In this document: in pieces, positions 1-22,041 of the stretch
Position numbering within the stretch: position 1 is the stretch's first letter
Layout of the letters: each line of letters opens with the position of its first letter
From: Formosa sp. Hel1_33_131
Lineage (GTDB): Bacteria > Bacteroidota > Bacteroidia > Flavobacteriales > Flavobacteriaceae
Reading direction: 5' to 3'
Assembly: GCF_001735745.1 (NCBI RefSeq)
Contig: NZ_CP017260.1
Location: 300,001-332,000, forward strand
DNA length: 32,000 bases
Notes under the pieces: model-generated
Seen by the model: only the letters and a program-made list of their open reading frames with translations
Told to the model about the DNA's origin: nothing
Databases searched by the model: none
Program-made: the position numbers and the translations under genes

Positions 1-1
1 A

Positions 2-1468
2 CCTTTTGGTTTTAATGGAGATTCTAAGGTCCACACCCCTATTATTGATAACTTAGCAAGTAACGGAATTGTTTTTAACAATGCATTTGTTTCTTCCTCT
101 ATATGCAGCCCAAGTAGGTATAGTATTTTAACAGGAAAATACGCAGGAAGGTCCGAAGGCACTAATTTCTTAAACGGGTATCCCGTAGGGCAATTAAGTC
201 GCGTTGCAAACAATATAGAACTCGAAGAAAATACAGATAATTTACCAAAACTATTACAAGCTGCAGGCTACAATACTGCTTTTATAGGAAAATCTCACAT
301 TGTGGATCATGAATTTTTAAACACCTATACACAAGGCAATTTTGGTTTCATGGCATACGATCAAACCGATGATCCCTATGTAGAAGCAATTTCTGATGCC
401 ATGAAATTTAATCATGATAAATGGGCAGACAGAATTAAAGATTTTGGATTTGATGTTGTGGATGCATTTTATCCCGCAAACTTAAGAGAATTAAAAAATG
501 ATGACTTAAACGTTCACAATGTTGAGTATAAGAATAAAGCGGTTCTCGATTATATTGAGAATGCTAGTGACGACCCTTTCTTTATTTACTACAGTGAAAC
601 GGTGCCTCATGGTCCAGCCCCTTTTTGGTCAAATAATAATAATTTTTATGCCGGTTTAGATTCAGACGTTAATATCACAGCTGAAGGTGTTTTAATACAA
701 GACTATTCGTACTTACCAACACGAGCGCAAATAAAAGATGAAATTTCTAATTTACCTGGAAAGGATATAAAACAAGCTTGGTTGCGTTGGTTTGACCATG
801 CTGTTGGTGCTGTTGTCAGTAAATTAGAGGAAACAGGAAAGTTAGATAACACCATCATCGTTATTACTTCCGATCATGGAGATTTTAACAAAGGGAAATC
901 TACAAATTACGATGCAGGCACAAAAGTACCTTTAATGATCTATTGGCCAGATGGAATTTCGACGCCTTCTACTTACGACGAATTGGTTCAGAATATAGAC
1001 TTCGCCCCTACTTTTTTAGATATTGCGGGTGTAGATATTTCTACTTCAGAGATGGATGGTGTAAGTTTAAAAGAAGTTATTACTAATAATGCTACAGAAG
1101 CTGTTCACGATCATTTATTTTTTGAATTAGGGTTTTCTAGAGCGATTAGAACCAAAGACTGGAAATATGTAACGGTGCGTTATGATGATGCTACAAATCA
1201 AAGAATAGCCGACGGAGACACTTTCAATGGGCCAAACGGAACACAGGTACCTCTACCCTTCTACATCCCAAATGTATCTTTGGGAAGTTTAAGTGCAGCT
1301 GCGTACCCACTGTATCATGTAAAAGACCAATTATTTGATTTAAGCAATGACCCTTATGAAGAAGTCAATCTTTTTGACACTCAATTTGAAATAGCTACAG
1401 AACTAAGGAATACATTAAGAACCGAATTACTTACTTTTATTGACAGACCCTATCAAGAATTTACAGAT
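2..1468 (+). other. Sulfatase module of the fusion protein (paralog of 20401..22041)
   Basis: C-S-P-S-R at 104..118; GKSH, [55 protein letters not shown]. Colinear with the 20401 protein down to RPYQEFTD versus RPYAEFVN-stop. Confidence 0.9.
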
Positions 1469-4108
1469 ACCAGCGTAGATCTAACAGTCACTACAGAAAG
1501 TACTTCAATTTTAGGGAAGGTTTTAGCAGGTTACCAAGGTTGGTTCAATACGCCTACGGATGGTGAAGATTTAAATTGGAAACATTACCAAACCAGTATA
1601 AATGGAGTTAAAAGATTTGAACCTGGCTTTGCCACTTTAGATTTTTGGCCCGATATGAGTGAGGCAGATGCCGATGAAAAATACATCACTACTTTTACAC
1701 ATAAAGATGAAACTGCAGCGCATGTTTTTTCATCTGTAAATACAAAAACAATCAATCGTCATTTTGAATGGATGAATGATTATGGAATCGATGGGGTTTT
1801 CTTTCAACAATTTGCATCGAATCTCAAATCTAATGCACCTAAATTAAAAGCCAATGATAATCTTGTTTTTGATAATATCATAGCAGCTGCTCAGGAAAAT
1901 AACAACAGACTTGTGAGTATTATGTACGATTTATCGGGGTCTAACGCCACTTCAACAATGGTTGAAGACGTGAAACTGCATTGGGAATCCCTTGTTTCAA
2001 GACATGGAGTGAACGATGTCTCAAACAATCATTTATTAACCTACAACCAAAAGCCTGTAGTTGCACTTTGGGGCGTAGGTTTTAATCGAACAGATAATTA
2101 CGATTTAGACGATGTACAAGACTTGATTAACTATTTTAAGAACGATCCAACGTTTGGTGGCTGTTCCGTTTTATTAGGTGTGCCAAGAAGTTGGAGAACA
2201 TTGGACAGTGATGCCGTTAATGACACTCAATTACACACCGTTATAAGATCTGCTGATATTGTACATCCTTGGACGCCTGGGAGGTATAGTAATATCAGTG
2301 GTATCGATAGCCACAAGAATATTATAATTGCGGATAAAGCATGGTGTGATACAGAAAACTTATTATACATGCCTGTCGTTTTTCCAGGGTTTAGCTGGCA
2401 GAATCTAAAGAAAAGCCAAGGCACATTTTCTAGCCTTAACAGTATTCCAAGGTTAAAAGGAGATTTTTTATGGAGACAATTATACAATGCAGTCGATGCC
2501 GGCGCACAAACTCTTTATGTTGCAATGTTTGATGAGATGGACGAAGGGACTTGTATTTTTAAAGTTGATAATAACCCACCGTCAAGTGCATTGACTCAAT
2601 TTACAAACTACGAAGGTTTGCCTAGTGATTATTATTTATGGTTAACAGGAAAAGGTGGTGAAGCTTTGAGAGGAGAAATAGCACTGACCGTGAATCAACC
2701 CATTTATCAAAACTTACCAGAAATTACTGATTATTACGCAGATGAATTTGGAGAGGATAGCAATACAGGAACAAGCCCAGGAACTGCGGTTTCAACTGTT
2801 CATAAAGCTTACTCATTAGCAAACGATGGAAATACAATTAATATATCTGGTACTGTCATACATAATTCTAAAATTTCAGTTCAAAAGAGTCTCAGTTTTA
2901 TTGGCACAGAAAATGCCACAATTTTACCAGATGAGAATAAAGTAGGTACAGACCGGTTGTTTCATATCAGTAGTCCCGATTTGAATGTTTCTTTTTCAGA
3001 CATTACTTTTAAAGGAAACAAAGAATCATCCATTAATGGGGGCGCCATAAATATGAATGCCAACTCTAATTTAACGTTTACCAATAGTGTTTTTGATGAT
3101 AATTCTACAGGCGGCATAGACAAAGCTGGTGGCGGTTTATTTTTTAGTGAAGGAAATGTAACTATTATAAACTCCATTTTCAAAAATAATTTATCTCGAG
3201 GAAACGGAGGCGCCATCAGCGGTTCTGGTGATGGAACGTTAACCATTACGGGGTCTTTATTCATAAATAATACCGCTGCAAATATTAATAAAACGGACGG
3301 AAATGGAGACAGAGCCAATGGTGGTGCCATTAATGTTTATGGAGATGGTAGAGAAGTCATAATGTCTGAAAATACATTTTATAATAACGAGGCAACGTTT
3401 CAAGGTGGTGGTTTATATTTTGGAGGTTTAAATACGACTAATACTTTAGAAAACATAACCATTTTTAGTAACAAAGTAACCTTAACATCAGCAGAATCCG
3501 GAAGAGCGGGAGGAATTAGAATTGAAGGAGATAGAAGTTTCGAGATTAAAAACGCCTTGTTTTATGACAATCGTTTGGGAGATACCGAAAACCCAGAATC
3601 TGATATAAATAGTGCCTCAGCGGTTCAATTAAACTTGATAAATTCATTGTCTGGTAGTTCTGAAGGGTTCGGATCCGATGATGCATATGGCTCTTCAAAA
3701 ATAGACGCCGTTTTGACCTCTTCTAATTTACGTTTTAATGAAACCTCTGGAAAAGTAGAATATGATGAAGCACCAAATGGAGATGACAGTCCTATAGATT
3801 TTGGGGATGATGGGAATGATGCAGGAGCTTGGAACTCAATGTTGGTATTATCTGTTGATGATACTCAAATTTCTAATGATAATTTTGAAGTTCATTTTTA
3901 TAATTTAACCAAAAGTATCAAGGTATTCTCAACGAACAATTTACCATTAGATATAAAAATTTATACGATTCATGGGGCTAGGGTATTAGAGAAAAATCAT
4001 AATAATCCTAAGGAACTTATAAATATAACGCACTTAAAAACAGGTGTTTACATTCTAAATGCAATGGAAAACGGAAAAGAGTTTTCAAAAAAGTTTATTC
4101 TTTATTAA
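2..4108 (+). CDS. Multi-modular secreted enzyme, 5' end cut by the window edge: S1 formylglycine-type sulfatase + GH99/GH71-like glycoside hydrolase + Pmp-like parallel beta-helix + T9SS C-terminal sorting domain
   Basis: The track ORF starts at GTG 302, but the same frame is open back to position 2. There it encodes [53 protein letters not shown], which aligns with residues ~57 onward of the sulfatase at 20401..22041, so the true start lies upstream of the window. CxPxR sulfatase motif at 104..118. Module evidence is listed in the sub-features. Confidence 0.9.
   Translation, partial: [1368 protein letters not shown]
1511..2715 (+). other. GH99/GH71-like (beta/alpha)8 module of the fusion protein (paralog of 11555..12856)
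   Basis: [11 protein letters not shown] (compare the GH99 YYxWY strand-1 motif), [38 protein letters not shown], and [17 protein letters not shown] with ExxE at 2534..2545 (compare GH99 FNEWHEGTQIE). Boundaries are approximate. Confidence 0.7.
2940..3600 (+). other. Parallel beta-helix region with Pmp/PbH1-like repeats
   Basis: Reiterated ~25-30-aa turns carrying GGAI/GGGL plus F-x-(N/D)-N: [136 protein letters not shown]. Boundaries are approximate. Confidence 0.65.
3878..4105 (+). other. T9SS (Por) C-terminal sorting domain
   Basis: The last ~75 aa, [74 protein letters not shown], fit the type-A CTD pattern (I-x-I-Y-x-x-x-G-x-x-V ... L-x-x-G-V-Y-I-L ... K-x-I). Confidence 0.8.
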
Positions 4109-5478: not shown

Positions 5479-8400
5479 ATGGAAAAAATAAAAATTATTT
5501 TATTGCTTATAATTTTTCCTCTCTTTGTTTTTTCTCAAGAAAACACCATCCAAGGAACTATTACAAATATCATTGGAGAACCTATTCCGGGAGTTACCAT
5601 TCTTTTAGAAGGAACACAAACTGGATCGTCTTCAGATTTTGATGGTAACTACACCATAAACACACAAAATAAAACGGAAGGTGTTTTAGCCTTTAGTTAT
5701 GTAGGCTTCACAACTGTAAAGATTAGTTTTGTTAAAGACAGCAAAACAATCAATGCCGTACTTGAGGAATCTACAGAAGAATTGGATGAGATTGTAATTA
5801 CAGCATTGGGTATAAAGCGCGATAAAAAATCACTTTCTTATTCTACCCAATCCGTAGATTCAGATGATATGAAAGAGGCTCGATCTACAAATTTCTTGAA
5901 TGCTCTCGCAGGAAAAGCTGCCGGTGTTCAAGTTGTGAGCTCCTCTACTCCTACTGGATCCACACGAGTTATTATTAGAGGTCTTACTTCTATTACAGGG
6001 AATAATCAACCTTTATATATTGTGGACGGTATACCGCTTGACAGCTCACCAGGAGATGGTGGAGTTTCCGTTTGGAACGGAGGGGATGATATCGATTTTG
6101 GAAGTCCTATCTCTACATTAAACCCAGACGACATAGATTCTATTCAAGTTTTAAAAGGGGCGAATGCTTCTGCACTTTATGGCTCAAGAGCTTCAAATGG
6201 TGTTATTATTATTACAACTAAAAAAGCCGAAAAAAGCAAAGGGAAAATTAGAGTCAATCTAAATTCAAATTTTTCTGTAATCTCAAATAGAGAATATCCT
6301 TACTATCAGTACGTATATGGTGCAGGAGACAATGCTAGATTAACGCCTAATGTTAGTAAGTTAGACCCTGAAACAGGGCTTCCTCTTGTTGGAGCGTTTA
6401 GAAGAGCTTATGGAATGCCATTTTTAGGGCAACAAGTTTTAGATTATAACGGAGAAGTTGGTACGTATAAACCCAACGTTAATAATGTTAAAGAACTCTA
6501 TAAAGTAGGAACAGTCGCTACTAATACGTTATCCTTTAGTAGAGCGACAGAAAAAAATACATTTCGTTTTTCATATTCTAGCACCTTAGGGGATCATGTG
6601 ATCGACAGAACGGAAAGAGTCAATAGGAATAATGTGGCGGTACGTTTCTCTCAAGAAATTTCTGACAAACTAAAAGTGAATACCAGTTTAATTTATGTGA
6701 ATCAGAGGGTAGACAACAGAATGTATAGAAATGGTAGTGAAAGAAATCCTGCCAACAACTATATGTACATTTTACCTAACATGTCTCAAAATAATTTATT
6801 TCCTTATAAAGATGAAGACAATAATGCCTTTAATTACGAGGGACCTTTTAATAACCCCTACTGGAATATATACGAAAACACAAATCAAGATATCACAAAT
6901 AGAATTGTTGCGAATGTGACTTTAAATTATCAAATTTTAGACGGCTTAAGTCTAAAAACAAGAATAAATGGAGTGATTAATGATGTGGATCGATTTGAAT
7001 TTAACAATATGGGAGCCGCTTATGATCCAAACGGATTGTACAGAGAAATTGCTGTTAAAAGAGAAAACAGGAATTATGAAGCGATCTTAAATTACACCAA
7101 AAAAATCAACAACATTTCAATTGTTTCCCTTTTAGGAGCTAATAGATTTGATTTAAGAACATCTGGAACACGTAAAACTGCCATTTCACTTTTAGAAAGA
7201 AATATCATGAACCTATCAAATGGTGATGAATTTTCTCCTACAGTATATCTTCCAAATAATAAAACAATAAACTCTGTTTTTGGGTCTGTATCTGCAGGTT
7301 TCAATGATACCTATTTTATTGATATTACTGGAAGGAATGATTGGTCGTCTACACTTCCTTCAAACAATAACTCCTATTTTTATCCATCCATTGGTGGTAC
7401 TACAATCTTCACCAAATTCTTACCTATAAATAACATCTTAACATTTGGTAAAGTAAGAGCTTCATTTGCTCAAGTAGGAAATGATACGTCGTTTGACAGA
7501 ATTATCAATAATTATATTGAGGGTGGAAACTACAACAACACACAATGGTTGGCATTACAAAATCAACGAAAAAATTTAGAATTAAAACCAGAACTAACTT
7601 CCTCTACAGAATTTGGTATTGAAACTAAGTTATTTAATAACAGAATTACCTTAGATGCTACTTACTATAGGTCATCCACAAACAATCAAATTGTTCCAGT
7701 ACAAGTAACTCCAACATCAGGTTTTATTTCGAAAATTATCAATGCTGGAGAAATTCAAAATAAAGGGTTGGAATTGTTTCTATCAGCAAAAATATTAACC
7801 AACCAATTTAAATGGGATACCAGTATAAATTGGTCCAAAAATGAATCTTTAGTGGTGTCTCTAGCCGATGGTGTGGATCGATTGTTACTAAGAAATTTCT
7901 TCAATGTTGGAGTGTATGCGGAAGCTGGAGAAACCTTTGGTAACATTAGAGGGAATGCGCAAGCAAAAGACCCCGTATCAGGAACACCTTTAGTTTTACC
8001 TAATGGACGCGTACGTTGGGATGAAGACCAATATTTAGGAAATGCACAAGCAGACTGGATTGGAAGTCTAAGGAACACTTTTTCCTACAAAGGATTTAAT
8101 TTAAACTTTTTAATTGATGTGAAAATGGGGGGAGAGTTATTTTCTGCCACAATGATCAAAGCAGTAAATCATGGGATTCATGCAGAATCTTTACAAGGAA
8201 GAGAAGAATATTTACTTTCATCTCTAATATTAGGAGAAAATAATGATGAGAGACAAGGAGTAGGATTATTTGGTAATAATTATGCAGATGCTGAAAGAGC
8301 TAAAGGAGTTATCTATAGAGGCGCCGCTTTAGGCGTACAAGATGAGGATGGTAATTGGGTTGCTGAAAGAGATGAGGATGGTAATATTGTGTATTCTCAA

Positions 8401-8715
8401 AGATGGCTAAACCCACAACTCTATGGTTTTGATGGTATTCAAGATCAAGGACGATTTGTTTACGATGCTTCTTATGTAAAATTAAGAGAAATTGTTTTTG
8501 GATATACCTTTCCTCCAAGAATGATTAAAAAATTAAAAGGAGTAAAAAACCTTAAACTTTCAGTTGTTGGAAGAGATTTATGGACGATTTATAGAAATAC
8601 ACCTCAAGGAATCGATCCAGAGGCAGGCACAACATCTGGGAATGGTCAAGGGATAGAGTTTGGTTCTTTTTTACCTACAAGAACCCTTGGTGTTAATTTA
8701 AAAATAGTATTTTAA
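5479..8715 (+). CDS. susC: SusC-like TonB-dependent outer-membrane glycan transporter
   Basis: 1078 aa. Signal peptide; carboxypeptidase-regulatory-like domain (IQGTITNIIGEPIPGVTILLEGTQTGSSSDFDGNYTI); TonB box and plug (LDEIVITALGIKRDKKSLSYSTQSV, NALAGKAAGVQV, IRGLTSITGNNQPLYIVDGIPL, IQVLKGANASALYGSRASNGVIIITTKK). C-terminus LGVNLKIVF. SusD-like gene follows after 2 nt. Confidence 0.95.
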   Translation: MEKIKIILLLIIFPLFVFSQENTIQGTITNIIGEPIPGVTILLEGTQTGSSSDFDGNYTINTQNKTEGVLAFSYVGFTTVKISFVKDSKTINAVLEESTEELDEIVITALGIKRDKKSLSYSTQSVDSDDMKEARSTNFLNALAGKAAGVQVVSSSTPTGSTRVIIRGLTSITGNNQPLYIVDGIPLDSSPGDGGVSVWNGGDDIDFGSPISTLNPDDIDSIQVLKGANASALYGSRASNGVIIITTKKAEKSKGKIRVNLNSNFSVISNREYPYYQYVYGAGDNARLTPNVSKLDPETGLPLVGAFRRAYGMPFLGQQVLDYNGEVGTYKPNVNNVKELYKVGTVATNTLSFSRATEKNTFRFSYSSTLGDHVIDRTERVNRNNVAVRFSQEISDKLKVNTSLIYVNQRVDNRMYRNGSERNPANNYMYILPNMSQNNLFPYKDEDNNAFNYEGPFNNPYWNIYENTNQDITNRIVANVTLNYQILDGLSLKTRINGVINDVDRFEFNNMGAAYDPNGLYREIAVKRENRNYEAILNYTKKINNISIVSLLGANRFDLRTSGTRKTAISLLERNIMNLSNGDEFSPTVYLPNNKTINSVFGSVSAGFNDTYFIDITGRNDWSSTLPSNNNSYFYPSIGGTTIFTKFLPINNILTFGKVRASFAQVGNDTSFDRIINNYIEGGNYNNTQWLALQNQRKNLELKPELTSSTEFGIETKLFNNRITLDATYYRSSTNNQIVPVQVTPTSGFISKIINAGEIQNKGLELFLSAKILTNQFKWDTSINWSKNESLVVSLADGVDRLLLRNFFNVGVYAEAGETFGNIRGNAQAKDPVSGTPLVLPNGRVRWDEDQYLGNAQADWIGSLRNTFSYKGFNLNFLIDVKMGGELFSATMIKAVNHGIHAESLQGREEYLLSSLILGENNDERQGVGLFGNNYADAERAKGVIYRGAALGVQDEDGNWVAERDEDGNIVYSQRWLNPQLYGFDGIQDQGRFVYDASYVKLREIVFGYTFPPRMIKKLKGVKNLKLSVVGRDLWTIYRNTPQGIDPEAGTTSGNGQGIEFGSFLPTRTLGVNLKIVF
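8341..8385 (+). repeat. 15-nt direct repeat (gatgaggatggtaat) at 30-nt spacing inside susC, encoding two DEDGN motifs
   Basis: gatgaggatggtaat occurs at 8341..8355 and again at 8371..8385. Translated: QDEDGNWVAERDEDGNIVY. Confidence 0.9.
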
Positions 8716-8717
8716 TT

Positions 8718-10466
8718 ATGGAAAATATGAAGAAAAACAAGAAATACGTTAGCTTAAAATTATCTGTGTTCATAATTTTATTTTCAACATCTTGTACAAA
8801 AGATTTTGAGGAAATCAATACCAATGAGTATATATTTAATGAAGCATCACCAAGTGCCCTTTTTGCTGGAGTTGTAAAAAACACTTTAGACCTCGTTGGT
8901 GGTACTATGAACGATCAATTATACAACACTTACGCTAGTTTCTATGGTGGTAAAGGAGGGCAGTTCAATCGGTATTTTTATACAGAACAAGCACTGGACC
9001 AATACTGGAGAAGATTTTATGTAAATATTCTTAAAAACAATCAAGATATCATTGATAGTTATTCTGATGATTCTAATTATAGCAATAGAGTCTCTATTGC
9101 CAAAATATGGAAGAGTTATGTGTATTCAATTTTAGTATCTACATTTGGACCTGTACCTTATCAGGAGGCATTACAGGGAGAAAACGCAGCTGCTTATGAT
9201 TCTGAAGAATTTATTTATACAGATATTTTAGCTGAATTAAAAACTGCTTTTGAAAATATAGATGCTTCTGGAGACACGTTAGCACAAGATCCTATATTTG
9301 ATGGAGACCTTGATAAATGGAAAAAATTTGCCAATTCACTGCGCTTAAAAATTGCACTTAGAATTTCAGAAGGGTTCCCAGTTTTAGCACAACAACACGG
9401 ATCAGATGCGATGGCAAATGAAGCAAACTTAATTGGTTCAAATGCAGAAAACGCTGTGATGAAATGGGGTTTAGAACAGGAAAATTGGTCATTTAACTAT
9501 TCAAGATACGTTTTTATTGAAGCCAATGATGATGTTGTTCCTTATATGAATTTACATTTTCTTTTAAATCTTAAAACATATAAAGATCCAAGACTTTTTA
9601 AACTCGTAGAACCCTCTAACGATCCAATAACCATTACAGATGTCGTTTTTAGATCTGGATCAACTACAGAACAAATTACAGTAGAATATGAATTACCCTA
9701 TTTTGGAAGGCCTTTGGGTGGAAATGCAGGCGTAGAAGGTTGGGGTCTAAATCAAAATGACAATATATTAAACGGATTAGCAAACAGAAGGTTTAGCAGA
9801 CCTAAATTAGATTTATTTATGGCTCAAGATATGGGGTATAATGTAATCACCTATTCCGAAATAAACTTCATCAAAGCAGAAGCACAGTTAAAAGGTTGGG
9901 GTGGATCTAAATCTGCTGAACAATATTACTATGACGGGATAGAGGCTTCGTTTCAACAATATGGAGCCATTGGAGTCACTGAATATAAAAATAGAGATGG
10001 TATACAATGGGGAACTACGAGTGTAGGAGACAGAGGTTTATTTGGCCTTGTGACAAGCGGTATTTCAAATGATCCTTTAGACAAAATCACAAGACAACGA
10101 TGGCTCGCTAGCTATAACCAAGGTCATGATATTTGGTGCATGCAAAAAAGAACGAGAAAATTACCATTGATCGATCAATTTGCACCGGATGGCGCGACAG
10201 GTCTTGATTACGCACCTTTACCAGAAAGAATGGTTTACCCTCCTTTAAGTGAAGGCGGTCTAAACAATGCTGCATTCCAAGACGCTATTCTTAATTTGGG
10301 AGGAAATACGCTTTACAACCCCCTACAAATGAATAAGTCAGAAGACTATTCTCCAGTTCAATGGGAAACTCTAGTTCCTGAGCTTAACCAAGATTTTGGA
10401 ACAAATTTTTATGGCGATTCTGAAGATGATTTAATTGCTGAAGGCATAGACTACACAATAATTTAA
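8718..10466 (+). CDS. susD: SusD/RagB-family outer-membrane glycan-binding lipoprotein
   Basis: Lipoprotein signal LFSTSC followed by acidic residues (TKDFEEIN). 582 aa, directly downstream of SusC. SusD-like motifs: WKSYVYSILVSTFGPVPY, SLRLKIALRI, INFIKAEAQLKGW, RQRWLASYNQGHDIWCMQKRT. The start could be ATG 8718 or 8727. Confidence 0.9.
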   Translation: MENMKKNKKYVSLKLSVFIILFSTSCTKDFEEINTNEYIFNEASPSALFAGVVKNTLDLVGGTMNDQLYNTYASFYGGKGGQFNRYFYTEQALDQYWRRFYVNILKNNQDIIDSYSDDSNYSNRVSIAKIWKSYVYSILVSTFGPVPYQEALQGENAAAYDSEEFIYTDILAELKTAFENIDASGDTLAQDPIFDGDLDKWKKFANSLRLKIALRISEGFPVLAQQHGSDAMANEANLIGSNAENAVMKWGLEQENWSFNYSRYVFIEANDDVVPYMNLHFLLNLKTYKDPRLFKLVEPSNDPITITDVVFRSGSTTEQITVEYELPYFGRPLGGNAGVEGWGLNQNDNILNGLANRRFSRPKLDLFMAQDMGYNVITYSEINFIKAEAQLKGWGGSKSAEQYYYDGIEASFQQYGAIGVTEYKNRDGIQWGTTSVGDRGLFGLVTSGISNDPLDKITRQRWLASYNQGHDIWCMQKRTRKLPLIDQFAPDGATGLDYAPLPERMVYPPLSEGGLNNAAFQDAILNLGGNTLYNPLQMNKSEDYSPVQWETLVPELNQDFGTNFYGDSEDDLIAEGIDYTII

Positions 10467-10476
10467 GATTTATAAA

Positions 10477-11553
10477 ATGAAAAAACTTAGCTATTTATTT
10501 TTAATGACATTATTTTTAATTTCATTTTCATGTACTGAAGATGATGTAGTAACGGGTGAAGATGGTATCTTAAACTATACCATTCCGAATGTCCCAGTAA
10601 CTTCAGATTATATTGTTGGTGCACAATATTCTACTTTTGGAAGAAGAAGTACAGTTCCTGAAGAACCTAGTATTGGGATTTACAACGGAAATGTAGGGGA
10701 TTCATTAGTTTACATACAACATGTAACTCAGGCACAAACTGCAGGAATAGATTTTTTCATTTTTAGATATCGCTCCGCAAATAATCAAAACCAAAATAAT
10801 GCCGATACCAGATTCATTGATGGTTTACAGGCTGCCTCCAATGCACAAGACGTGAATTTTGCACTTTCCTATAATTTTGGAAATATGGGCTTAAATAACA
10901 ACAATCGTATAGAAGACAGAGGCTTAGTGCAACGATTTATTGATGATTTTAAATTAATGATTCCATATTTTGACCAGCCTAACTACATGAAAATAGATGG
11001 TAAAAACATCGTCTACTTATACAATAGCCACAACCTTCACGCCAACGATAATGCTGCTTTATACCAGCAAATGAGAGCTGAATTATTAGATCTTAACGTT
11101 GAACTCTATTTAATAGGAATGCAAAATGAATGGACTCCAACTTTAAGATTTGACTTTAGGTTTATAAACGGAGTAGATGCTGTGACTCATAACACCTATG
11201 CCACCATTAATGTGAATGCTAATGACAGAGTCGTAAACTTCCATAAGTTTATAGATATCGCTTGGGAATATCATAGAGATACTTGGCTAGGATATAATAT
11301 CGAATACATACCAACAATATCTCCATCTATAAATTTAAAAATAATTAATTCAGGAAGTAACATAACTGTATTTGATAAAGATGAAGATTGGTTTAGAGGT
11401 TTTTCTAATGTAGCCCGAAGAGTTTCTGGTGCTAGTAAAATTATTCTTGTCGATTCTTTTAACGATTGGAATAGAGGAACTCAATTAGAATCTGCAGATA
11501 CTTATGGAGAAGATTTCCTTCAAATTTTAAAAGAAGAATTTAAGACAAATTAA
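10477..11553 (+). CDS. GH99/WbsX-fold lipoprotein with a substituted catalytic dyad; candidate non-catalytic surface glycan-binding protein
   Basis: Lipoprotein signal LISFSC followed by the strongly acidic TEDDVVTGEDG. GH99-like landmarks: PSIGIYNGNVGDSLVYIQHVTQAQTAGIDFFIF, MKIDGKNIVYLY, IPTISPS. ILVDSFNDWNRGTQLE aligns with GH99 SFNEWHEGTQIE, but the two Glu are D (11464..11466) and R (11473..11475). Confidence 0.6.
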   Translation: MKKLSYLFLMTLFLISFSCTEDDVVTGEDGILNYTIPNVPVTSDYIVGAQYSTFGRRSTVPEEPSIGIYNGNVGDSLVYIQHVTQAQTAGIDFFIFRYRSANNQNQNNADTRFIDGLQAASNAQDVNFALSYNFGNMGLNNNNRIEDRGLVQRFIDDFKLMIPYFDQPNYMKIDGKNIVYLYNSHNLHANDNAALYQQMRAELLDLNVELYLIGMQNEWTPTLRFDFRFINGVDAVTHNTYATINVNANDRVVNFHKFIDIAWEYHRDTWLGYNIEYIPTISPSINLKIINSGSNITVFDKDEDWFRGFSNVARRVSGASKIILVDSFNDWNRGTQLESADTYGEDFLQILKEEFKTN

Positions 11554-11554
11554 A

Positions 11555-12856
11555 ATGAAAAAAGAGCTAACTCTATTTATTACTTTCTTTAGTATTTTAC
11601 TTTTAAACAGCTGTAAAAGCAATACAAATAGTGATTCCCTCACTAAAGAAAGTCTTCCGCAAATTAATAACTCCATTGAAGGTAAAATCTTAGCGGGCTA
11701 TCAAGGCTGGTTTAATGCGAAAGGAGATGGTTCAAATTTGAAATGGAAACACTATGGCAACAACGCTGAATTTTATCCAGGAAGTACTTCTGTAGATTTT
11801 TGGCCAGAAATGGACGAAATCAAGAAAAGCAATCAATATAAAACTGCGTTTAAATATAAAGATGATAAACCCGCATTTGTTTTTAGTTCAGCAGATTATA
11901 AAACAGTTGACCTCCATTTTAAATGGATGAAAGATTATGGAATTGATGGTGTATTTGCACAACGTTTTGTGGTGGGTTTAACAAGAGGTCAAAGTAGAAT
12001 TGACAATTATAACACTGTTTTTGACAACTGTTTTAGAGCTGCAAAAAACAACAACAGAATATTGAGTTTAATGTACGATCTTTCAGGAACTACCACTGCT
12101 AATATTGTAGAAACCACTATTAAAGATTGGAAACAACTCGTTAAAAAATACAAGTTAAACGACCCCACAAACCCGAATGTATTAACCTATAAAGGAAAAG
12201 CGGTAGTTTCTCTTTGGGGCGTTGGTTTTGAAAACAGAAAATACACTTTAGAGAATATCAAAGAACTGATTGATTTCTTTAAAAACGATCCGGAATACGG
12301 AAACTGTGCCGTGCTTTTAGGCGTTCCAACAGCGTGGAGGACTTTAGACAGAGATGCCGTTAAGGATCCAAAATTACACGAAGTTATTAAGATGGCAGAT
12401 ATTGTGCATCCATGGACCCCTGGAAGGTATCATAATTTAGAATCCGCAGATCAGCATAAAGCTAACTATACTGTAAAAGATCAGCAATGGTGTTCTGAAA
12501 ATGATTTGATGTATATGCCGGTTGTGTTTCCAGGTTTTAGTTGGGCGAACATGAAAAATGACATGACTATTTTTAATCAAATACCGCGTTTAAAAGGGGA
12601 TTTCTTGTGGAGACAATTTTATAACGCCATTTCTTCTGATGCCAAAACAATTTACGTTGCCATGTTTGATGAAATTGATGAAGGTACTTGTATTTTTAAA
12701 GTAGATAACAACCCTCCTGTAGGGGAAAGTAAATTTCTAACCTATGAAGGGCTACCATCAGATTACTACTTATGGCAAACAGGACAAGCGACCAAAATGT
12801 TGCGTAAAGAAATTCCTCTAACAAAAGAGCAGCCCGTTTATCCTTACGTAAAATAA
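11555..12856 (+). CDS. GH99/GH71-like (beta/alpha)8 glycoside hydrolase lipoprotein; candidate endo-alpha-mannanase
   Basis: Lipoprotein signal LLLNSC. ILAGYQGWFNAKGDG, DYGIDGVFAQRF, SLWGVGF, IVHPWTPGRY, PVVFPGFSW, YVAMFDEIDEGTCIFKVDNNPP (ExxE at 12671..12682). By eye, more than half the residues match the module at 1511..2715. Confidence 0.7.
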   Translation: MKKELTLFITFFSILLLNSCKSNTNSDSLTKESLPQINNSIEGKILAGYQGWFNAKGDGSNLKWKHYGNNAEFYPGSTSVDFWPEMDEIKKSNQYKTAFKYKDDKPAFVFSSADYKTVDLHFKWMKDYGIDGVFAQRFVVGLTRGQSRIDNYNTVFDNCFRAAKNNNRILSLMYDLSGTTTANIVETTIKDWKQLVKKYKLNDPTNPNVLTYKGKAVVSLWGVGFENRKYTLENIKELIDFFKNDPEYGNCAVLLGVPTAWRTLDRDAVKDPKLHEVIKMADIVHPWTPGRYHNLESADQHKANYTVKDQQWCSENDLMYMPVVFPGFSWANMKNDMTIFNQIPRLKGDFLWRQFYNAISSDAKTIYVAMFDEIDEGTCIFKVDNNPPVGESKFLTYEGLPSDYYLWQTGQATKMLRKEIPLTKEQPVYPYVK

Positions 12857-12867
12857 TTCCACAGTTT

Positions 12868-15123
12868 ATGAATTTAAAGACCTTTATACCAAAAATAGAA
12901 TTTATTATTTATATAAAAATAGTAGTGATTTCTCTGCTCATATTTTCATGTAACTCAACAAAAGGCACCTCAAAAAATAGTGATAATGTAAACTATGTTG
13001 ATCCACAAATTGGAGGCGTTGCGCCTTTTTTACAACCGACAAGAACACGCATACATTTGCCAAATTCAATGGTACGAATGTATCCAGAAAGAAAAGACTA
13101 CAGAGACGATCAAATCACTTCTTTTCCATTAACAACACGAAAGCATCGATCTGATTTACTTTTTAATATTATGCCTGTTTCGGGGGCTATAAATGAAGCC
13201 GATGAACCGATTTCTGCTTGGGATCAAGAGTTAGAGATTGCACACCCTCACTACTACTCTACTTGGCTAGAAGATTATAATATTACTACAGAATTTACAC
13301 CCGCAGCGCAATCAGGTTTCTTTAAATTTACCTATCAAAACAACACGACTCGAAAACTATATCTCAGCGATTTAACGGGTGATGATTGGCAATTAAATGA
13401 AGATGGTTCTCTTACGGGAACCGAATCTTTTGAAGGAATGTTGGGCTATGTGTATGCCGTAACAGACAAAAAAGGAGTGTTTACATCTGTAGAAACTCAA
13501 GATAACACTCTCAACTCTTGGATGACTTGGAACGATACAGATATCAATCAAGTTCAATTTAAATATGGAATCTCATTTATAAGTAGTGAGCAAGCAAAGA
13601 AAAATTTAGAAAGAGAAATTCCAGATTTCAATTTTGAAAATGTAAAAGAAAAAGCGCATAAAAAATGGTCTAATTTGATGAATCAAATTGAAGTTGAAGG
13701 CGGCACAGATGCGTACAAAAGAACTTTTTATACCGCGCTTTATCGTTCCTATGAACGAATGATAAATATTTCTGAAGACGGAACCTATTACAGTAATTAC
13801 GACCAAAAAATTCACGAAGGGGAACAAGACTTTTATGCCGATGATTGGGTTTGGGATACGTTTTTAGCATTGCATCCACTACGCTATATTTTACAACCAG
13901 ACGTGGAATCAGATATGATGGCTTCTTACGTAAGAATGTACGAACAATCGGGTTGGTTGCCTCAATTTCCTCAAATTCATGGAGATGCACCTCCAATGAA
14001 TGGCTTCCACTCTACCATCATGTTATTGGACGCTTACAGAAAAGGAGTTACTAATTTTGATGCTGAAATAGCATTTCAGGCAATGAAAAAAAATGCTTTA
14101 GAAGGCACCATGATTCCTTGGAAAATGGGCGCACATGCCCCTCTTGACAAACTTGCTTTAGAACTTGGTTATTTTCCAGCATTGTACCCAGAAGAAAAAG
14201 AAACAGAGCCTAGAGTTCATGATTTTGAAAAAAGACAATCGGTTGCGGTTACCTTAGCTCAAGGTTATGATGATTGGGCATTAGCAGAATTTGCTAAAGA
14301 ATTAGGTAAAGAGGAAGATTATAAATACTTCTCCAAAACAGCACAGAATTACAAAAATCTATATTGGAAGGAAAGAGGATTTTTTATGCCAAAAGATGCC
14401 AAGGGCAATTGGATTGATATCGATCCAAAATTTGATGGTGGAATGGGTGGTAGAGATTATTATGATGAAAATAATGGTTGGACCTACCTATGGAATGTAC
14501 AACAAGATATTTTAGGATTGCAAGAATTAATGGGCGGAAGAAAAACGTTTGAAGAACGTTTAGACCAAATGTTTAGAGAAGATTTAGGAAGATCTACCTA
14601 TGCTTTAAATGCAAGATTTCCAGATTTCACAGGGATTGTTGGGCAATATTCTATGGGAAATGAACCCAGTTTTCATATCCCCTATTTATACAATTTTACA
14701 GATTCGCCTTGGAAAGCGCAAAAGAAAATAAGAATGCTTTTGAACACATGGTTTAAAGATAATATTTTTGGTATTCCAGGAGATGAAGATGGTGGAGGCA
14801 TGTCTGCTTTTGTGGTGTTTTCTGCAATGGGCTTTTATCCCATAACTCCAGGAATCCCCGTCTATACGATTGGAAGTCCTTTGTTTTCAAAAATCAGCAT
14901 CAACCTTCCAAATGGTAAAAAATTCACCATAAACGCACCCAACTGTAATGAAACTAACAAATACATACAGTCTGCAACCTTAAACGGAAAAGAGCTAAAA
15001 GGCCCTTGGTTTACACACAATGATTTGATCAATGGCGCAACCATCACATTGCAAATGGGGAAATACCCAAATATAAATTGGGGTACAGATCCATCTCTGA
15101 TACCAAACGATTTTAAAAACTAA
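12868..15123 (+). CDS. GH92 alpha-mannosidase (divergent N-terminal subtype), lipoprotein
   Basis: 751 aa. LLIFSC lipobox. GH92 core motifs FYTALYRSYERM, DDWVWDTFLALHPL, YEQSGWLPQFP, YYDENNGWTYLW, YSMGNEPSFHIPYLYN (Glu codon 14662..14664), GIPGDEDGGGMSAFVVFSAMGFYP. The N-terminus reads YVDPQIGGVAPFLQPTRTRIHLPNSMVRMYP rather than the canonical GTGGxGHTFPGA. Confidence 0.9.
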   Translation: MNLKTFIPKIEFIIYIKIVVISLLIFSCNSTKGTSKNSDNVNYVDPQIGGVAPFLQPTRTRIHLPNSMVRMYPERKDYRDDQITSFPLTTRKHRSDLLFNIMPVSGAINEADEPISAWDQELEIAHPHYYSTWLEDYNITTEFTPAAQSGFFKFTYQNNTTRKLYLSDLTGDDWQLNEDGSLTGTESFEGMLGYVYAVTDKKGVFTSVETQDNTLNSWMTWNDTDINQVQFKYGISFISSEQAKKNLEREIPDFNFENVKEKAHKKWSNLMNQIEVEGGTDAYKRTFYTALYRSYERMINISEDGTYYSNYDQKIHEGEQDFYADDWVWDTFLALHPLRYILQPDVESDMMASYVRMYEQSGWLPQFPQIHGDAPPMNGFHSTIMLLDAYRKGVTNFDAEIAFQAMKKNALEGTMIPWKMGAHAPLDKLALELGYFPALYPEEKETEPRVHDFEKRQSVAVTLAQGYDDWALAEFAKELGKEEDYKYFSKTAQNYKNLYWKERGFFMPKDAKGNWIDIDPKFDGGMGGRDYYDENNGWTYLWNVQQDILGLQELMGGRKTFEERLDQMFREDLGRSTYALNARFPDFTGIVGQYSMGNEPSFHIPYLYNFTDSPWKAQKKIRMLLNTWFKDNIFGIPGDEDGGGMSAFVVFSAMGFYPITPGIPVYTIGSPLFSKISINLPNGKKFTINAPNCNETNKYIQSATLNGKELKGPWFTHNDLINGATITLQMGKYPNINWGTDPSLIPNDFKN

Positions 15124-15136
15124 CAACCAATTACTT

Positions 15137-17416
15137 ATGAAAAATATAAAAATCTACTTTCTACTTCTTACAGTAATAGGCCTACTCTCTTTTAGTACCG
15201 TCACAAAAACCACAACTAAAGAATCTGATGACAATACAAAGTATGTAAACACCTTTATAGGTACAGGTGGGCACGGACATACGTTTCCCGGCGCAACGAC
15301 CCCCTACGGGATGGTGCAGCTAAGTCCGGATACTAGAACGTTGGGCTGGGATGCTTGTGGAGGCTATCATTACACAGATACTTCGATTTTAGGATTTTCT
15401 CACACCCATTTAAGTGGAACAGGAATTAGTGATTTAGGCGACTTTTTGTTTATGCCTTTTTCAGGTGAAGCAAAAGTAATTCCCGGAACTCCAGAAGATC
15501 CAGATTCAGGATACCGTTCTCGATTTAACCATGATGATGAAAAATCATCTCCAGGGTTTTATTCAGTGTTACTAAAAGATTACAACATCAAAGCAGAACT
15601 GACGGCTTCAAAAAGAGCTGGTTTTCATAAATACACCTTCAATAAAGAAGGGGAATCGGGTATCATTATAGATTTATCGCATACCATTTATCCAGATCAT
15701 AAACCAAACCATCAATTTAAATTAATTTCTGATACAGAAATTGCAGGCTATAAAGGGTCTGGAGGTTGGGCTGTGACGCAAGATATTTTTTTCAATGCAA
15801 AATTTAATAAACCCTTTACAGTTACTTTTTTCGAAAATGGAAAAAAAATAGAAACATTACCAAACAGAATGTCAAAAAAATTGGTGGCCGTATTAACCTT
15901 TAATACAAAAGCTGGTGAAGAAGTCTTGACAAAGGTTGGTATTTCATCTGTTGACTATGAAGGTGCTCGTAAGAATTTGGAGGCAGAAATTAATCATTGG
16001 GATTTTGATAAAGTTAAAAATGATGCGCATGAAACTTGGAAAAAAGAATTATCAAAAATTAATGTCAAAGGAGGTACTGACGATGAAAAAACAATTTTCT
16101 ATACGGGTCTTTATCATACGTCTATAAGTCCAAATACGTTTTCTGATGTCGATTTCAGATACAGAGGAATGGACAGGAAAATTCACCAATCTGACGAAGA
16201 AAAAATTTATACAGTGTTCTCGTTGTGGGATACTTTTAGAGCCTACAATCCTTTAAAAACAATTACAGATCCTGATAAAACCAACGAATTTATAAATACA
16301 CTTTTAACAAAATACGATCAAGGGGGTGTTTTGCCAATGTGGGAATTGCAAGGGAATTACACTGGGTGTATGATTGGGTACCATTCCGTTTCTGTGATTG
16401 TAGATGCTTACACTAAAGGAATTCGAGGCTATGATGTAAAGAAAGCCTATGAAGCCGTTGTTCATGCATCAACGTATGACACAACAGATATCTTTTTTCC
16501 ATCAGAAAGAGTTAAAAATATTTTAATGCCTAAGGGAAAACTCTATAATGAAACGATGGATTTTATTCCTGCTGATTTAGAAAATGAATCCGTTTCTAAA
16601 GCCTTAGAATATGCTTATAATGATTGGTGTATTGCACAAATGGCAAAAGATTTAGGGAACACAGACGATTACAATCGTTTTATGAAACGCTCCAAAAAAT
16701 ACACTCAATATTACGATACAGACGCTGGGTTTATGAGAGGGAAAAATCAAGATGGAAAATGGCGTGAGCCTTTTGACCCCCGTTATTCGAAGCACAGAAA
16801 AGATGATTATACAGAAGGAAATGCCTATCAATGGTCTTGGTTTGTACCTCACGATGTTGAAGGATTGGTTGATTTAGTCGGTGGTAAAGAAACATTTATT
16901 AAAAATTTAGACGTCTTATTTTCTACGAGTTCTGAGTTAACTGGAGATGATGTTTCTGGAGATATTTCGGGTCTCATTGGGCAATATGCACACGGAAACG
17001 AACCCAGTCATCACATATCACATATGTATAATTTTGTGGGACAACCATGGAAAACTCAAGAGGTCACAGACCAAATCATGAGCGAATTGTATTTTAATAA
17101 CCCTAATGGATTGGCCGGAAATGAAGACTGTGGACAAATGTCTGCTTGGTATGTACTAAATGCCATGGGGTTTTATTCGTTTAATCCAGGAGACCCCACC
17201 TACTCTATTGGGCGTCCAATTTTTGATGAAGTAGAAATTAATTTACCAACAGGGAAGAAATTCATCATAAAAGCTAAAAATAATAGCAGCGAAAATAAAT
17301 ACATTCAAACTACTAAATTAAACGGGGAAGAATTAATAACTCCATTTTTCACGCATAAGCAATTAATTGCTGGAGGAACATTAAAATTTGAAATGGGTGG
17401 TAAGCAACCAAAGTAA
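15137..17416 (+). CDS. GH92 alpha-mannosidase (canonical subtype)
   Basis: 759 aa. Signal peptide. YVNTFIGTGGHGHTFPGATTPYGMVQLSPDT, GFSHTHLSGTG, FYTGLYH, SLWDTFRAYNPL, GVLPMWEL, EGNAYQWSWFVPHD, QYAHGNEPSHHISHMYN, GLAGNEDCGQMSAWYVLNAMGFY. Confidence 0.93.
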   Translation: MKNIKIYFLLLTVIGLLSFSTVTKTTTKESDDNTKYVNTFIGTGGHGHTFPGATTPYGMVQLSPDTRTLGWDACGGYHYTDTSILGFSHTHLSGTGISDLGDFLFMPFSGEAKVIPGTPEDPDSGYRSRFNHDDEKSSPGFYSVLLKDYNIKAELTASKRAGFHKYTFNKEGESGIIIDLSHTIYPDHKPNHQFKLISDTEIAGYKGSGGWAVTQDIFFNAKFNKPFTVTFFENGKKIETLPNRMSKKLVAVLTFNTKAGEEVLTKVGISSVDYEGARKNLEAEINHWDFDKVKNDAHETWKKELSKINVKGGTDDEKTIFYTGLYHTSISPNTFSDVDFRYRGMDRKIHQSDEEKIYTVFSLWDTFRAYNPLKTITDPDKTNEFINTLLTKYDQGGVLPMWELQGNYTGCMIGYHSVSVIVDAYTKGIRGYDVKKAYEAVVHASTYDTTDIFFPSERVKNILMPKGKLYNETMDFIPADLENESVSKALEYAYNDWCIAQMAKDLGNTDDYNRFMKRSKKYTQYYDTDAGFMRGKNQDGKWREPFDPRYSKHRKDDYTEGNAYQWSWFVPHDVEGLVDLVGGKETFIKNLDVLFSTSSELTGDDVSGDISGLIGQYAHGNEPSHHISHMYNFVGQPWKTQEVTDQIMSELYFNNPNGLAGNEDCGQMSAWYVLNAMGFYSFNPGDPTYSIGRPIFDEVEINLPTGKKFIIKAKNNSSENKYIQTTKLNGEELITPFFTHKQLIAGGTLKFEMGGKQPK

Positions 17417-20400: not shown

Positions 20401-22041
20401 ATGACATTTAATAATTACAAAACCATTGGATTTATATTCTTTTTAATACTAATTAGTACTACTAAATCAATTGCACAAAACACTAAAAAACCAAACATCA
20501 TCTTTATTATGACCGATGATCAAAGTGCTGTGGTGCCTTTAGATTCAGAGAAAAGAATACAATCGCGTCCTTTTGGATTTAATGGCGATAAAGAAGCACA
20601 CACACCCATTATAGATGATTTGGCAAAGAATGGTATAATTTTTAACAGCGCGTATGTATCAAGCTCTGTATGTGTGCCTAGTAGATATACAATGCTAACT
20701 GGACGTTATGCAGGAAGATCAGAGGGTCCAGCTTTTATGAGAATGCATCCGGATGGAGTGATGACAAGAGTAGAAAACAATACTGAAATAGAAAAAGACA
20801 AATCCAATTTACCAAGACTATTACAAGAAGTAGGTTACAAAACAGGTTTTGTAGGTAAAAGTCATATTGTGGAACATAATATCGTTAACAATAAAAATAA
20901 TTGGGAAAAAAATGGCTTCCAGACCTATGCGAAAAATGCAGATCCAAATGATCCAGCCGTTTCAAAAAAAATGTTTGAAAACCATCAAAAATGGACCGAA
21001 GTAATTAAAGAATATGGTTTTGATTATGCGAACGCATTTTATGCAGGAAATTTAAGGGAACAGTACAATGATTCTTTAAATGTTCATAATGTAGAATGGA
21101 AAAATAAAGCTGCTTTAGAATTCATCGATGAAAACAAAAACGATCCTTTCTTTTTGTATTACAGTGAAACGGTTCCTCATGGTCCAGCTCCCTATAATAT
21201 GAAAAATGGGAAATATTTTAGAGGTTTAGATTCAAATCCAAAATTTACAGGACAAGGGTTGATAGATGCGGATTACTCCTACTTACCCACTAGAGAAGAA
21301 ATCAAAGAAGAAATCAAAAATCTTGATAAAAAAGTAGCACATGCTTGGTTGCGTTGGTTTGATCATGCGGTTGGTGCCGTTGTAGACAAACTAAAAGCAG
21401 AAGGTATTTATGAAAACACCATTATTATAATTACGTCAGATCATGGGAACTACAACGGAGGAAAAACGAGCTTATACGAAAGTGGAACAAAAGTCCCTTT
21501 AATGATGCACTGGCTAAATGGAATTAAATCGAACCAAGTATATAACGAGTTAGTTCAAAATATTGATTTTACGCCTACTTTTTTAGAACTAGCAGGGATA
21601 AAATTAAAAAATGTAGAGTCAACCTTAGACGGCGTTAGTTTAAAAAAGGTATTAAAAGGAAATAAAAAACCAGTACATGATTATTTATTTTTTGAGATGG
21701 GTTATGCAAGAAGTGTAATGACTAAAGACTGGAAATATATATCTGTGAGATATGATAAACAAAAACAAAACAGAATCAATAAAGGCTTAACATTTAAAGG
21801 TTGGAAAGGTGCAGAACTTCAATACCCTTATTACACAAGAAATGGTCATTTAGGAAATATTGCATCAAAAAGCAGTGCTTTTTATTTTGATGCAGATCAA
21901 GTATTTGATTTAGTAAAAGATCCTCGTGAGACTGAAAACATTTTTGAAGACAACAGAGAAAAAGCAGAAGAACTTAAAATACTATTGACAAAAAGTTTGA
22001 AGTCATTTCCTAACCGGCCTTACGCTGAATTTGTAAATTAA
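20401..22041 (+). CDS. S1 formylglycine-type sulfatase, stand-alone paralog of the N-terminal module of the 2..4108 fusion
   Basis: SPI-type signal (STTKSIAQN). PNIIFIMTDDQS; C-V-P-S-R at 20671..20685; VGKSH; SETVPHGPAP; WLRWFDHAVGAVV; ITSDHGN; VFDLVKDPRETENIF. Colinear with 2..1468. Confidence 0.92.
   Translation: MTFNNYKTIGFIFFLILISTTKSIAQNTKKPNIIFIMTDDQSAVVPLDSEKRIQSRPFGFNGDKEAHTPIIDDLAKNGIIFNSAYVSSSVCVPSRYTMLTGRYAGRSEGPAFMRMHPDGVMTRVENNTEIEKDKSNLPRLLQEVGYKTGFVGKSHIVEHNIVNNKNNWEKNGFQTYAKNADPNDPAVSKKMFENHQKWTEVIKEYGFDYANAFYAGNLREQYNDSLNVHNVEWKNKAALEFIDENKNDPFFLYYSETVPHGPAPYNMKNGKYFRGLDSNPKFTGQGLIDADYSYLPTREEIKEEIKNLDKKVAHAWLRWFDHAVGAVVDKLKAEGIYENTIIIITSDHGNYNGGKTSLYESGTKVPLMMHWLNGIKSNQVYNELVQNIDFTPTFLELAGIKLKNVESTLDGVSLKKVLKGNKKPVHDYLFFEMGYARSVMTKDWKYISVRYDKQKQNRINKGLTFKGWKGAELQYPYYTRNGHLGNIASKSSAFYFDADQVFDLVKDPRETENIFEDNREKAEELKILLTKSLKSFPNRPYAEFVN

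Follow-up and report, generated by a model that had tools for sequence, protein, structure and literature searches.

A GH195-family lipoprotein in the core of a mannan utilisation locus of Formosa sp. Hel1_33_131: a candidate second, cell-bound endo-alpha-mannanase

A GH195 paralogue next to SusC/SusD

The stretch of DNA analysed here (the window: 32,000 nt of Formosa sp. Hel1_33_131, contig NZ_CP017260.1, positions 300,001 to 332,000) is a polysaccharide utilisation locus (PUL), in which all relevant genes of at least 100 amino acids lie on the + strand. Its gene at 11555..12856 encodes a lipoprotein that, by its sequence, is a member of glycoside hydrolase family GH195, namely the paralogue residing in the PUL core ('type B') and the orthologue of Pb1064 from Polaribacter sp. 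Hel1_33_78, as judged from open reading frame (ORF), sequence identity, synteny and structural model. The family has already been published, and only this copy is new. We propose, at about an even chance of being right, that this protein is an endo-alpha-mannanase bound to the cell and probably periplasmic, with the unfused S1_51 sulfatase encoded at 20401..22041 acting ahead of it.

This PUL was studied in Polaribacter sp. Hel1_33_78 by Krull et al. (Microbiome 2026, PMC13063451; bioRxiv 2024). There, PbSulf1-GH195 (Pb1059), consisting of an S1_51 sulfatase, a GH99-like module and a type IX secretion system (T9SS) domain, was found to free sulfate and a ladder of oligosaccharides (degree of polymerisation 3-7) from the C6-sulfated alpha-1,3-mannan of diatoms. 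The enzyme is an endo C6-sulfate alpha-1,3-mannanase which needs desulfation first, and its GH module founded CAZy family GH195 (PMC13063451). The separate O. pacifica enzymes OpSulf1 and OpGH195 were active together only, i.e. the glycosidase depends on earlier sulfatase action (PMC13063451). A 'gene distantly related to GH99' had been noted in this PUL type in 2018 (PMC6298971), and in 2020 the GH99-related gene was named a putative endo-mannanase (PMC7242417).

A preceding sequence-only reading of the window had regarded the lipoprotein and the module at 1511..2715 as an uncharacterised clade and a possible new family. They do form a family of their own, which became CAZy GH195, although it was already on record (2024 preprint, 2026 paper; PMC13063451). 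The suggestion that both are endo-acting depolymerases of a partly desulfated sulfated alpha-mannan has been borne out for an orthologue of the module, whereas the lipoprotein orthologue Pb1064 'appeared inactive' (PMC13063451), a result considered below.

The cloning primers of Krull et al. fit syntenic sites of the window, with 0-4 mismatches. The same primers match a metagenomic locus, L082, almost perfectly, which is why L082 is used here as a stand-in for the published Hel1_33_78 PUL. On these sequence grounds, the window is a related species' version of that PUL. The lipoprotein shares 77% identity and identical neighbour genes with its direct orthologue Pb1064 (L082:10001-11299), from which it differs in that the latter is reported with localisation 'none' and no activity. 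Identity to the Pb1059-type GH195 domain in L082 is 55% over 395 amino acids (E = 4e-148), and to the probable OpGH195 46.5%; the two founders of the family (Pb1059 domain and OpGH195 candidate) are ~37-44% identical to each other. Full-length similarity, a model with a GH99-like (beta/alpha)8 barrel and the two-glutamate motif DExDEG all place the lipoprotein within GH195.

The OpGH195 of the paper is most likely L084:5597-6889, which shows 36.9% identity over the alignment length, compared with the published 36%, and an SPI-like signal, compared with the published 'SPI 75%'. The O. pacifica protein P0065 was rejected as OpGH195, because its identity to the Pb1059 domain is 57% (~50% when counted over the alignment length) and its lipobox is clear. 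P0065 is the syntenic counterpart of the lipoprotein described here (order SusD, WbsX-like, P0065, GH92, GH92). Since OpGH195 is most likely a gene other than P0065, the positive biochemistry would lie outside the lineage of our lipoprotein. Like the latter, OpGH195 is a free-standing GH195 with a separate S1_51 partner, the arrangement we propose here; it differs in belonging to another subclade, in its SPI-type signal and in being encoded beside a PbSulf2 orthologue instead of susD.

Some further observations concern O. pacifica. Contig AFPK01000062.1 of strain S85 carries two GH195 genes in its mannan PUL, L084:5597-6889, which adjoins the PbSulf2 orthologue, and L081:10001-11344. The gene syntenic with ours (WP_010136366, P0065) seems to be absent from the published tests. 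When the sulfatase domain of the window was used as query, O. pacifica was not among the matches listed; it did appear when OpSulf1, its sequence rebuilt from the PDB alignment, served as query.

By ORF calling, the lipoprotein gene starts with ATG and encodes 433 amino acids. In the N-terminus, MKKELTLFITFFSILLLNSC, a charged n-region is combined with a hydrophobic core, and residue 20 is a Cys; by eye, this is a lipoprotein-type signal peptide (11555..11614, + strand), with the lipobox-like LNSC (Cys20) followed by KSNTNS and by no acidic run. The paralogy was examined against the tandem module of the gene at 1..4108, the window's own PbSulf1-GH195 orthologue. Identity amounts to 56% over 403 residues (module at 1523..2715; E = 2e-156), far beyond chance, in agreement with the earlier impression of one shared sequence type, and makes the two paralogues at the sequence level. 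The motifs on which that impression was built are all present at the positions given for them, on the + strand: LAGYQGWF (11690..11713; 1523..1546 in the tandem module), IVHPWTPGRY (12401..12430; 2258..2287), PVVFPGFSW (12518..12544; 2372..2398) and MFDE[IM]DEGTCIFKVDNNPP (12662..12718; 2525..2581). The ExxE pair reads EIDE in the lipoprotein (E373, E376; 12671..12682) and EMDE in the tandem module (2534..2545), and aligns with the catalytic pair of GH99.

Resemblance to GH99 and GH71

The remote likeness to GH99 that had been noticed from the sequence was recovered here. Pfam model PF16317 (GH99) scores 35.9 bits on the lipoprotein (cut-off 33), over profile positions 233-339 of 341 and thus over the last ~110 residues; the match covers the C-terminal third and not the full length expected of a GH99 member. 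A phmmer search against the PDB returned GH99 chains only (best E = 5e-5), and a profile built from 83 family sequences reached E = 8.6e-11 against the GH99 chains of the PDB. In the profile comparison the first stretch to be aligned is LAGYQGWF on the first barrel strand, a weak counterpart of the GH99 motif YYxWY that is not significant alone. Phmmer and profile alignments pair E373/E376 with E329/E332 of BtGH99, which correspond to E333/E336 of BxGH99. In the latter, E333 is the proposed base for the 2-hydroxyl, and E336, in the position of the acid, is separated by 2.65 Å from the imidazole nitrogen of the inhibitor in the complex (PMC6001782). From the alignments, E373 and E376 are predicted to act as O2-deprotonating base and general acid, respectively.

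The fold gives a clearer picture. An AlphaFold2 model of the lipoprotein (pLDDT 92.9, pTM 0.88) was compared with the PDB by Foldseek, and the 36 best matches were all GH99 structures (E = 1e-18, TM 0.72-0.82 by target length, 14-17% identity). GH71, with which a comparison had also been suggested, comes next and far behind (E = 3e-9, TM 0.41-0.47), and no Pfam GH71 match was obtained for the lipoprotein at E <= 0.01, which speaks against membership in that family. With the GH71 alpha-1,3-glucanases (AnGH71C, Agn1), which act on another substrate, it shares a distant barrel fold. A comparison with NCBIfam assigned none of the window's three GH99-like proteins to a family, and the PDB holds no GH195 glycosidase structure. 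Altogether, the GH99 likeness of the lipoprotein is real but remote, weak in sequence and clear in fold.

This bears on the question whether the lipoprotein could be a true GH99 endo-alpha-1,2-mannosidase acting on glycoprotein N-glycans. The Pfam hit, barely over its cut-off, the JGI annotation 'glycoprotein endo-alpha-1,2-mannosidase' and the glycoprotein substrate about which Kappelmann et al. speculated for this PUL type (PMC6298971) point in that direction. We nevertheless consider it extremely unlikely, given the 14-17% identity to GH99 structures, a sequence likeness limited to the C-terminal third, and close relatives that cut alpha-1,3-mannan and are given a separate family by CAZy (PMC13063451). 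BtGH99, BxGH99 and human MANEA, all endo-acting alpha-mannoside hydrolases, are the best structural matches and have the glutamate pair at the same motif position; they cleave the alpha-1,2 bond in Glc/Man-1,3-Man-1,2 and have no link to sulfated substrates.

The third GH99-like protein is encoded directly upstream, at 10477..11553 (+ strand), and is a WbsX/GH99-like lipoprotein orthologous to Pb1063 (Pfam PF14307, with a sub-threshold GH99 match). It has NDWNR at the ExxE position, which is degenerate in all 15 orthologues (D/N and R/K/F/L/I...), and both catalytic glutamates are lost. Its orthologues all carry an acidic run directly after the lipid-anchor Cys (TEDD, NKEDE or DKDE; TEDD in the window copy), and from its sequence it is likely to bind glycan at the cell surface, with a GH99-like barrel that is catalytically dead. 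Pb1063 was inactive in the published screen (PMC13063451). The GH195 lipoprotein had been called the only candidate endo-enzyme of the locus, and the gene at 10477..11553 was overlooked in that statement; because it has lost both catalytic glutamates, the statement survives in practice. Likewise, Pfam, run on every ORF of at least 100 amino acids in the window and on the ORF cut at its 3' end, found neither GH76 nor a canonical GH99, as had been stated.

Conservation and position within the family

All 57 residues that are invariant among 83 homologues are kept in the lipoprotein, in Pb1064, in the Pb1059 domain, in the OpGH195 candidate and in family members from Pinibacter and from a B. ovatus metagenome-assembled genome (MAG). 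They include G48, Y49, Q50 and W52 of the LAGYQGWF motif as well as E373 and E376 of the DExDEG motif, the latter two being invariant in the characterised-type sequences, too. Against its orthologues, the lipoprotein has a dN/dS (ratio of nonsynonymous to synonymous substitution rates) of 0.10-0.14, equal to that of the tandem paralogue. The gene is under purifying selection and is no decaying copy.

A catalytically silent copy that merely binds glycan would agree with the negative screen (PMC13063451), and the adjacent GH99-like protein at 10477..11553 illustrates such degeneration within this very locus. Here, the ExxE pair and all invariant residues are retained, with a dN/dS like that of the active-type paralogue, and we regard a silent copy as very unlikely.

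We placed the protein in a midpoint-rooted neighbour-joining tree of 96 domains from 84 sources (83 loci plus the window), which carries no support values and is suited to coarse grouping only. Tandem domains and the lipoprotein type appear as sister clades within marine Flavobacteriaceae, and P0065 of O. pacifica together with two other sequences falls just outside both. P0065 is 56-57% identical to both paralogues alike. The gene order SusC/SusD/WbsX-like/GH195/GH92 recurs in 15 loci, including that of O. pacifica. Four of these 15 core-order loci are free of sulfatases: two from Pinibacter (L020, L022), the B. ovatus MAG (L043) and a Bacteroidales MAG (L059).

In three loci (L003, L004, L005) the core type is the sole GH195 within +/-10 kb, the range over which all loci were viewed; L007 has a type-C copy in addition. 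In each of these four loci there is an unfused S1_51 sulfatase with 66-89% identity to the one at 20401..22041 of the window, and such an unfused sulfatase co-occurs with a type-B GH195 in L001, L003, L004, L005, L007 and L082. Secreted S1_51 relatives are mostly unfused proteins of ~611-642 amino acids with a T9SS tail of their own and no GH195 domain (P0123-P0141, L004:14318-16192). From these sequences, the sulfatase-GH195 fusion seems to be a lineage-specific derivative, restricted to a Polaribacter-like lineage, and the core type looks ancestral. By sequence, the window then holds two pairs of sulfatase and GH195, one fused and secreted, the other unfused.

In the B. ovatus MAG, GH195 is fused to an N-terminal calcineurin-like phosphoesterase (L043:9152-11191), within the sulfatase-free SusC/SusD/WbsX-like/GH92 locus. 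This formally parallels the sulfatase-GH195 fusion and hints at a phosphorylated mannan as target. A general rule that GH195 is fused to de-esterifying domains was considered and rejected: ten multi-domain representatives show T9SS tails, CBM9, CBM4_9 and dockerin-like modules.

Cellular location and charge

In the clade of the lipoprotein, the anchor Cys is followed by KSNT, QSKK or SPNK, and an acidic surface-export motif is absent. Close orthologues have either Cys-containing (SPII) or plain SPI signals, with several of the SPI type. An acidic run after the Cys is said to mark surface export in Bacteroidota, as reportedly described by Lauber et al. in 2016. Applied here, the rule would place the GH195 lipoprotein on the periplasmic side and the WbsX-like protein on the surface.

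A surface-exposed endo-mannanase at SusC/D, redundant with the secreted fusion or replacing it where the fusion is absent, is quite unlikely in our estimate. It would suit the position of the gene, two genes downstream of susD and 1 nt after the WbsX-like gene, and the loci L003-L005 with the core type as only GH195, in L004 of which the secreted S1_51 sulfatase is unfused; moreover, acidic residues follow the lipid-anchor Cys in some distant homologues. Against it, the query clade lacks the acidic motif, several close orthologues with plain SPI signals would be unable to anchor at the surface, and the view of each locus extends over +/-10 kb only.

The two paralogues also differ in charge. 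With a pI of 4.8-5.2 and a net charge of -13 to -20, tandem GH195 domains are acidic; core-type proteins are basic (pI 8.0-9.4) in 10 of 12 cases, the exceptions being O. pacifica P0065 (pI 5.7) and the L009 copy (pI 5.9). This contrast could stem from the compartment or from a difference in how well sulfated substrate is tolerated.

The negative result for Pb1064

Pb1064 was listed as 'GH99-like' with localisation 'none' and is among 18 enzymes that 'appeared inactive' (PMC13063451); this verdict is taken from a sentence of the main text. Codon 11 of the real gene, an ATG in Hel1_33_78 as in P0007 (SFLSMLTLFFFNSC), is where primer Pb1064F begins. Since the primer begins at this codon, the construct kept MLTLFFFNSC, i.e. 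ten signal-peptide residues including the lipid-anchor Cys, and since the gene model starts at the internal Met11, the localisation 'none' is a gene-model artefact. The assay was performed with crude lysate on a crude anionic fraction, and pure mannan is given as 'n.t.' (PMC13063451). Readouts of the screen were fluorophore-assisted carbohydrate electrophoresis (FACE) and reducing sugar, with enzymes assayed singly and no sulfatase-partner assay reported (PMC13063451). We consider the negative weak evidence, because a construct with part of its signal peptide was tested as crude lysate on a crude fraction, with no sulfatase partner reported, even though GH195 is inactive without sulfatase.

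Two observations on neighbouring genes belong here. The Pb1063 primer likewise starts at an internal Met (codon 14) within the lipoprotein signal peptide (L082:8916-8974; for Pb1064, L082:10001-10045), so that both gene models are 5'-truncated and 'none' is an artefact for both. Pb1070, the orthologue of the unfused S1_51 sulfatase, was counted 'inactive', yet FACE and reducing-sugar readouts would miss desulfation alone.

An active GH195 with another specificity would also account for the negative screen on the mannan fraction (PMC13063451). Such an enzyme might act where the glycan is decorated or linked in another way (branches of xylose or glucuronic acid, 4-O-sulfate, heavier sulfation) or on unsulfated alpha-mannan. 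The charge contrast to the tandem type and the presence of the core module in the sulfatase-free Pinibacter and B. ovatus MAG loci are compatible with this, and the PUL encodes many enzymes beyond the minimal cascade (PMC13063451). NMR data, going by figure legends of the paper's supplement, hint at minor xylose and 4-O-sulfate (PMC13063451). On the other hand, the 56% identity to an active-type paralogue comes with every family-invariant residue in common, and the charge difference may merely follow secreted versus cell-bound location. We rate a different specificity as rather unlikely, though as the strongest of the rival readings.

Proposed role

According to our proposal of a cell-bound endo-mannanase, the T9SS-secreted fusion (1..4108) would make the first cuts outside the cell, as demonstrated for its Polaribacter orthologue. 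The lipoprotein would be a second, cell-bound endo-mannanase, most likely facing the periplasm. The unfused S1_51 sulfatase (20401..22041) would first remove one 6-O-sulfate, and the lipoprotein would then shorten the imported sulfated manno-oligosaccharides, providing the GH92 exo-mannosidases with more chain ends. Catalysis by E373/E376 would proceed as in GH99, with O2 deprotonation, general acid assistance and net retention through a 1,2-anhydro-sugar.

Among the closest known systems is PbSulf1-GH195 itself, whose Pb1059 domain comes from the same PUL type and family and shares 55% identity, the invariant residues and the ExxE pair with our lipoprotein. It differs by being fused to S1_51, secreted via T9SS, acidic (pI ~5) and of demonstrated activity, in contrast to a basic, free-standing lipoprotein. 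A similar division of labour is said to exist in the yeast-mannan PULs of Bacteroides thetaiotaomicron, for which Cuskin et al. reportedly described in 2015 that a surface GH76 makes large fragments and a periplasmic paralogue cuts further. These GH76 pairs would follow the same outer/periplasmic logic as proposed here; they belong to an unrelated family, act on unsulfated alpha-1,6-mannan and have no sulfatase partner.

Several points weigh against this proposal. The sole experiment on an orthologue was negative, Pb1064 having 'appeared inactive on the mannan'. In the published cascade, four enzymes suffice to degrade the mannan fully, and a Pb1064-type protein is not among them (PMC13063451). 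The core type is the only GH195 seen in some loci, which fits a surface role better. The periplasmic placement leans on a sequence rule from the literature, and the mechanism of GH195 is GH99-like by proposal only, through analogy.

A bolder reading, which we offer tentatively as possible though doubtful, is that the lipoprotein-type GH195 represents an ancestral PUL-core endo-mannanase with a specificity of its own. It might, for instance, cope with more sulfate than its acidic secreted paralogue does, or be confined to imported oligosaccharides. The Pb1064 negative would then be an artefact of the truncated gene model and the missing sulfatase, and together with the dead GH99-like lipoprotein the enzyme would form a conserved module for capturing and cutting alpha-mannan, used without sulfatases by soil and gut Bacteroidota as well.

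Organisation of the locus

The window opens with the PbSulf1-GH195 (Pb1059) orthologue (1..4108, cut by the window start), in which an S1_51 sulfatase (to ~1504) is followed by GH195 (~1523..2715), a beta-helix and a T9SS C-terminal sorting domain. Its reading frame, frame 2, runs open from base 2 onwards and includes CSPSR. For the sulfatase domain, the match to OpSulf1 (PDB 9FVT) has E = 1.3e-168, and the GH domain shares 77% identity with the Pb1059-type domain of L082. A CarboxypepD_reg protein (Pfam) is encoded between this gene and the transport pair immediately upstream of the two GH99-like lipoproteins, SusC-like (5479..8715) and SusD-like (8718..10466; together 5479..10466, Pfam). Downstream of the GH195 lipoprotein, after 11 nt, two GH92 exo-mannosidases orthologous to Pb1065 and Pb1066 are located at 12868..17416 (Pfam, primers). 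Because of the gaps of 1 nt upstream and 11 nt downstream, the lipoprotein gene is probably co-transcribed with its neighbours.

The two GH92 genes are followed, in this order, by an MFS transporter, two sulfatases, an esterase, a third sulfatase and a phosphomannose isomerase (Pfam). The unfused S1_51 sulfatase at 20401..22041 is identified as the Pb1070 orthologue by primers Pb1070F and Pb1070R, which match at 20476 and 22041. The crystallised OpSulf1 is 58% identical to this unfused sulfatase, compared with 52% to the fused sulfatase domain. Further downstream are a third GH92 (26304..28544; PbGH92_1/Pb1075 orthologue by primers and Pfam) and a fourth sulfatase (28578..30164; PbSulf2/Pb1078 orthologue by primers and Pfam, 73% identical to its O. 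pacifica counterpart), which correspond to steps 3 and 4 of the published cascade. A fourth GH92 (30263..32000) runs off the 3' end of the window. All these genes are on the + strand. Relative to the Hel1_33_78 PUL, the window is without the Pb1069 sulfatase and the two GH3 genes Pb1076 and Pb1077.

Implications

At the level of the family, the discovery foreseen by the sequence-only reading has already been made: a GH99-like family that depolymerises the sulfated mannan of diatoms. Marine Polaribacter keep a second, well-conserved GH195 beside SusC/D, and the 'four-enzyme' pathway may be incomplete in living cells. Should the lipoprotein and the unfused S1_51 sulfatase indeed make up a second endo-acting pair, the processing model for this abundant glycan would gain a compartment and enzyme-based mannan assays would gain reagents. 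With two characterised members among 899 GH195 clusters (E <= 1e-30), the scope for mapping specificities within the family is wide.

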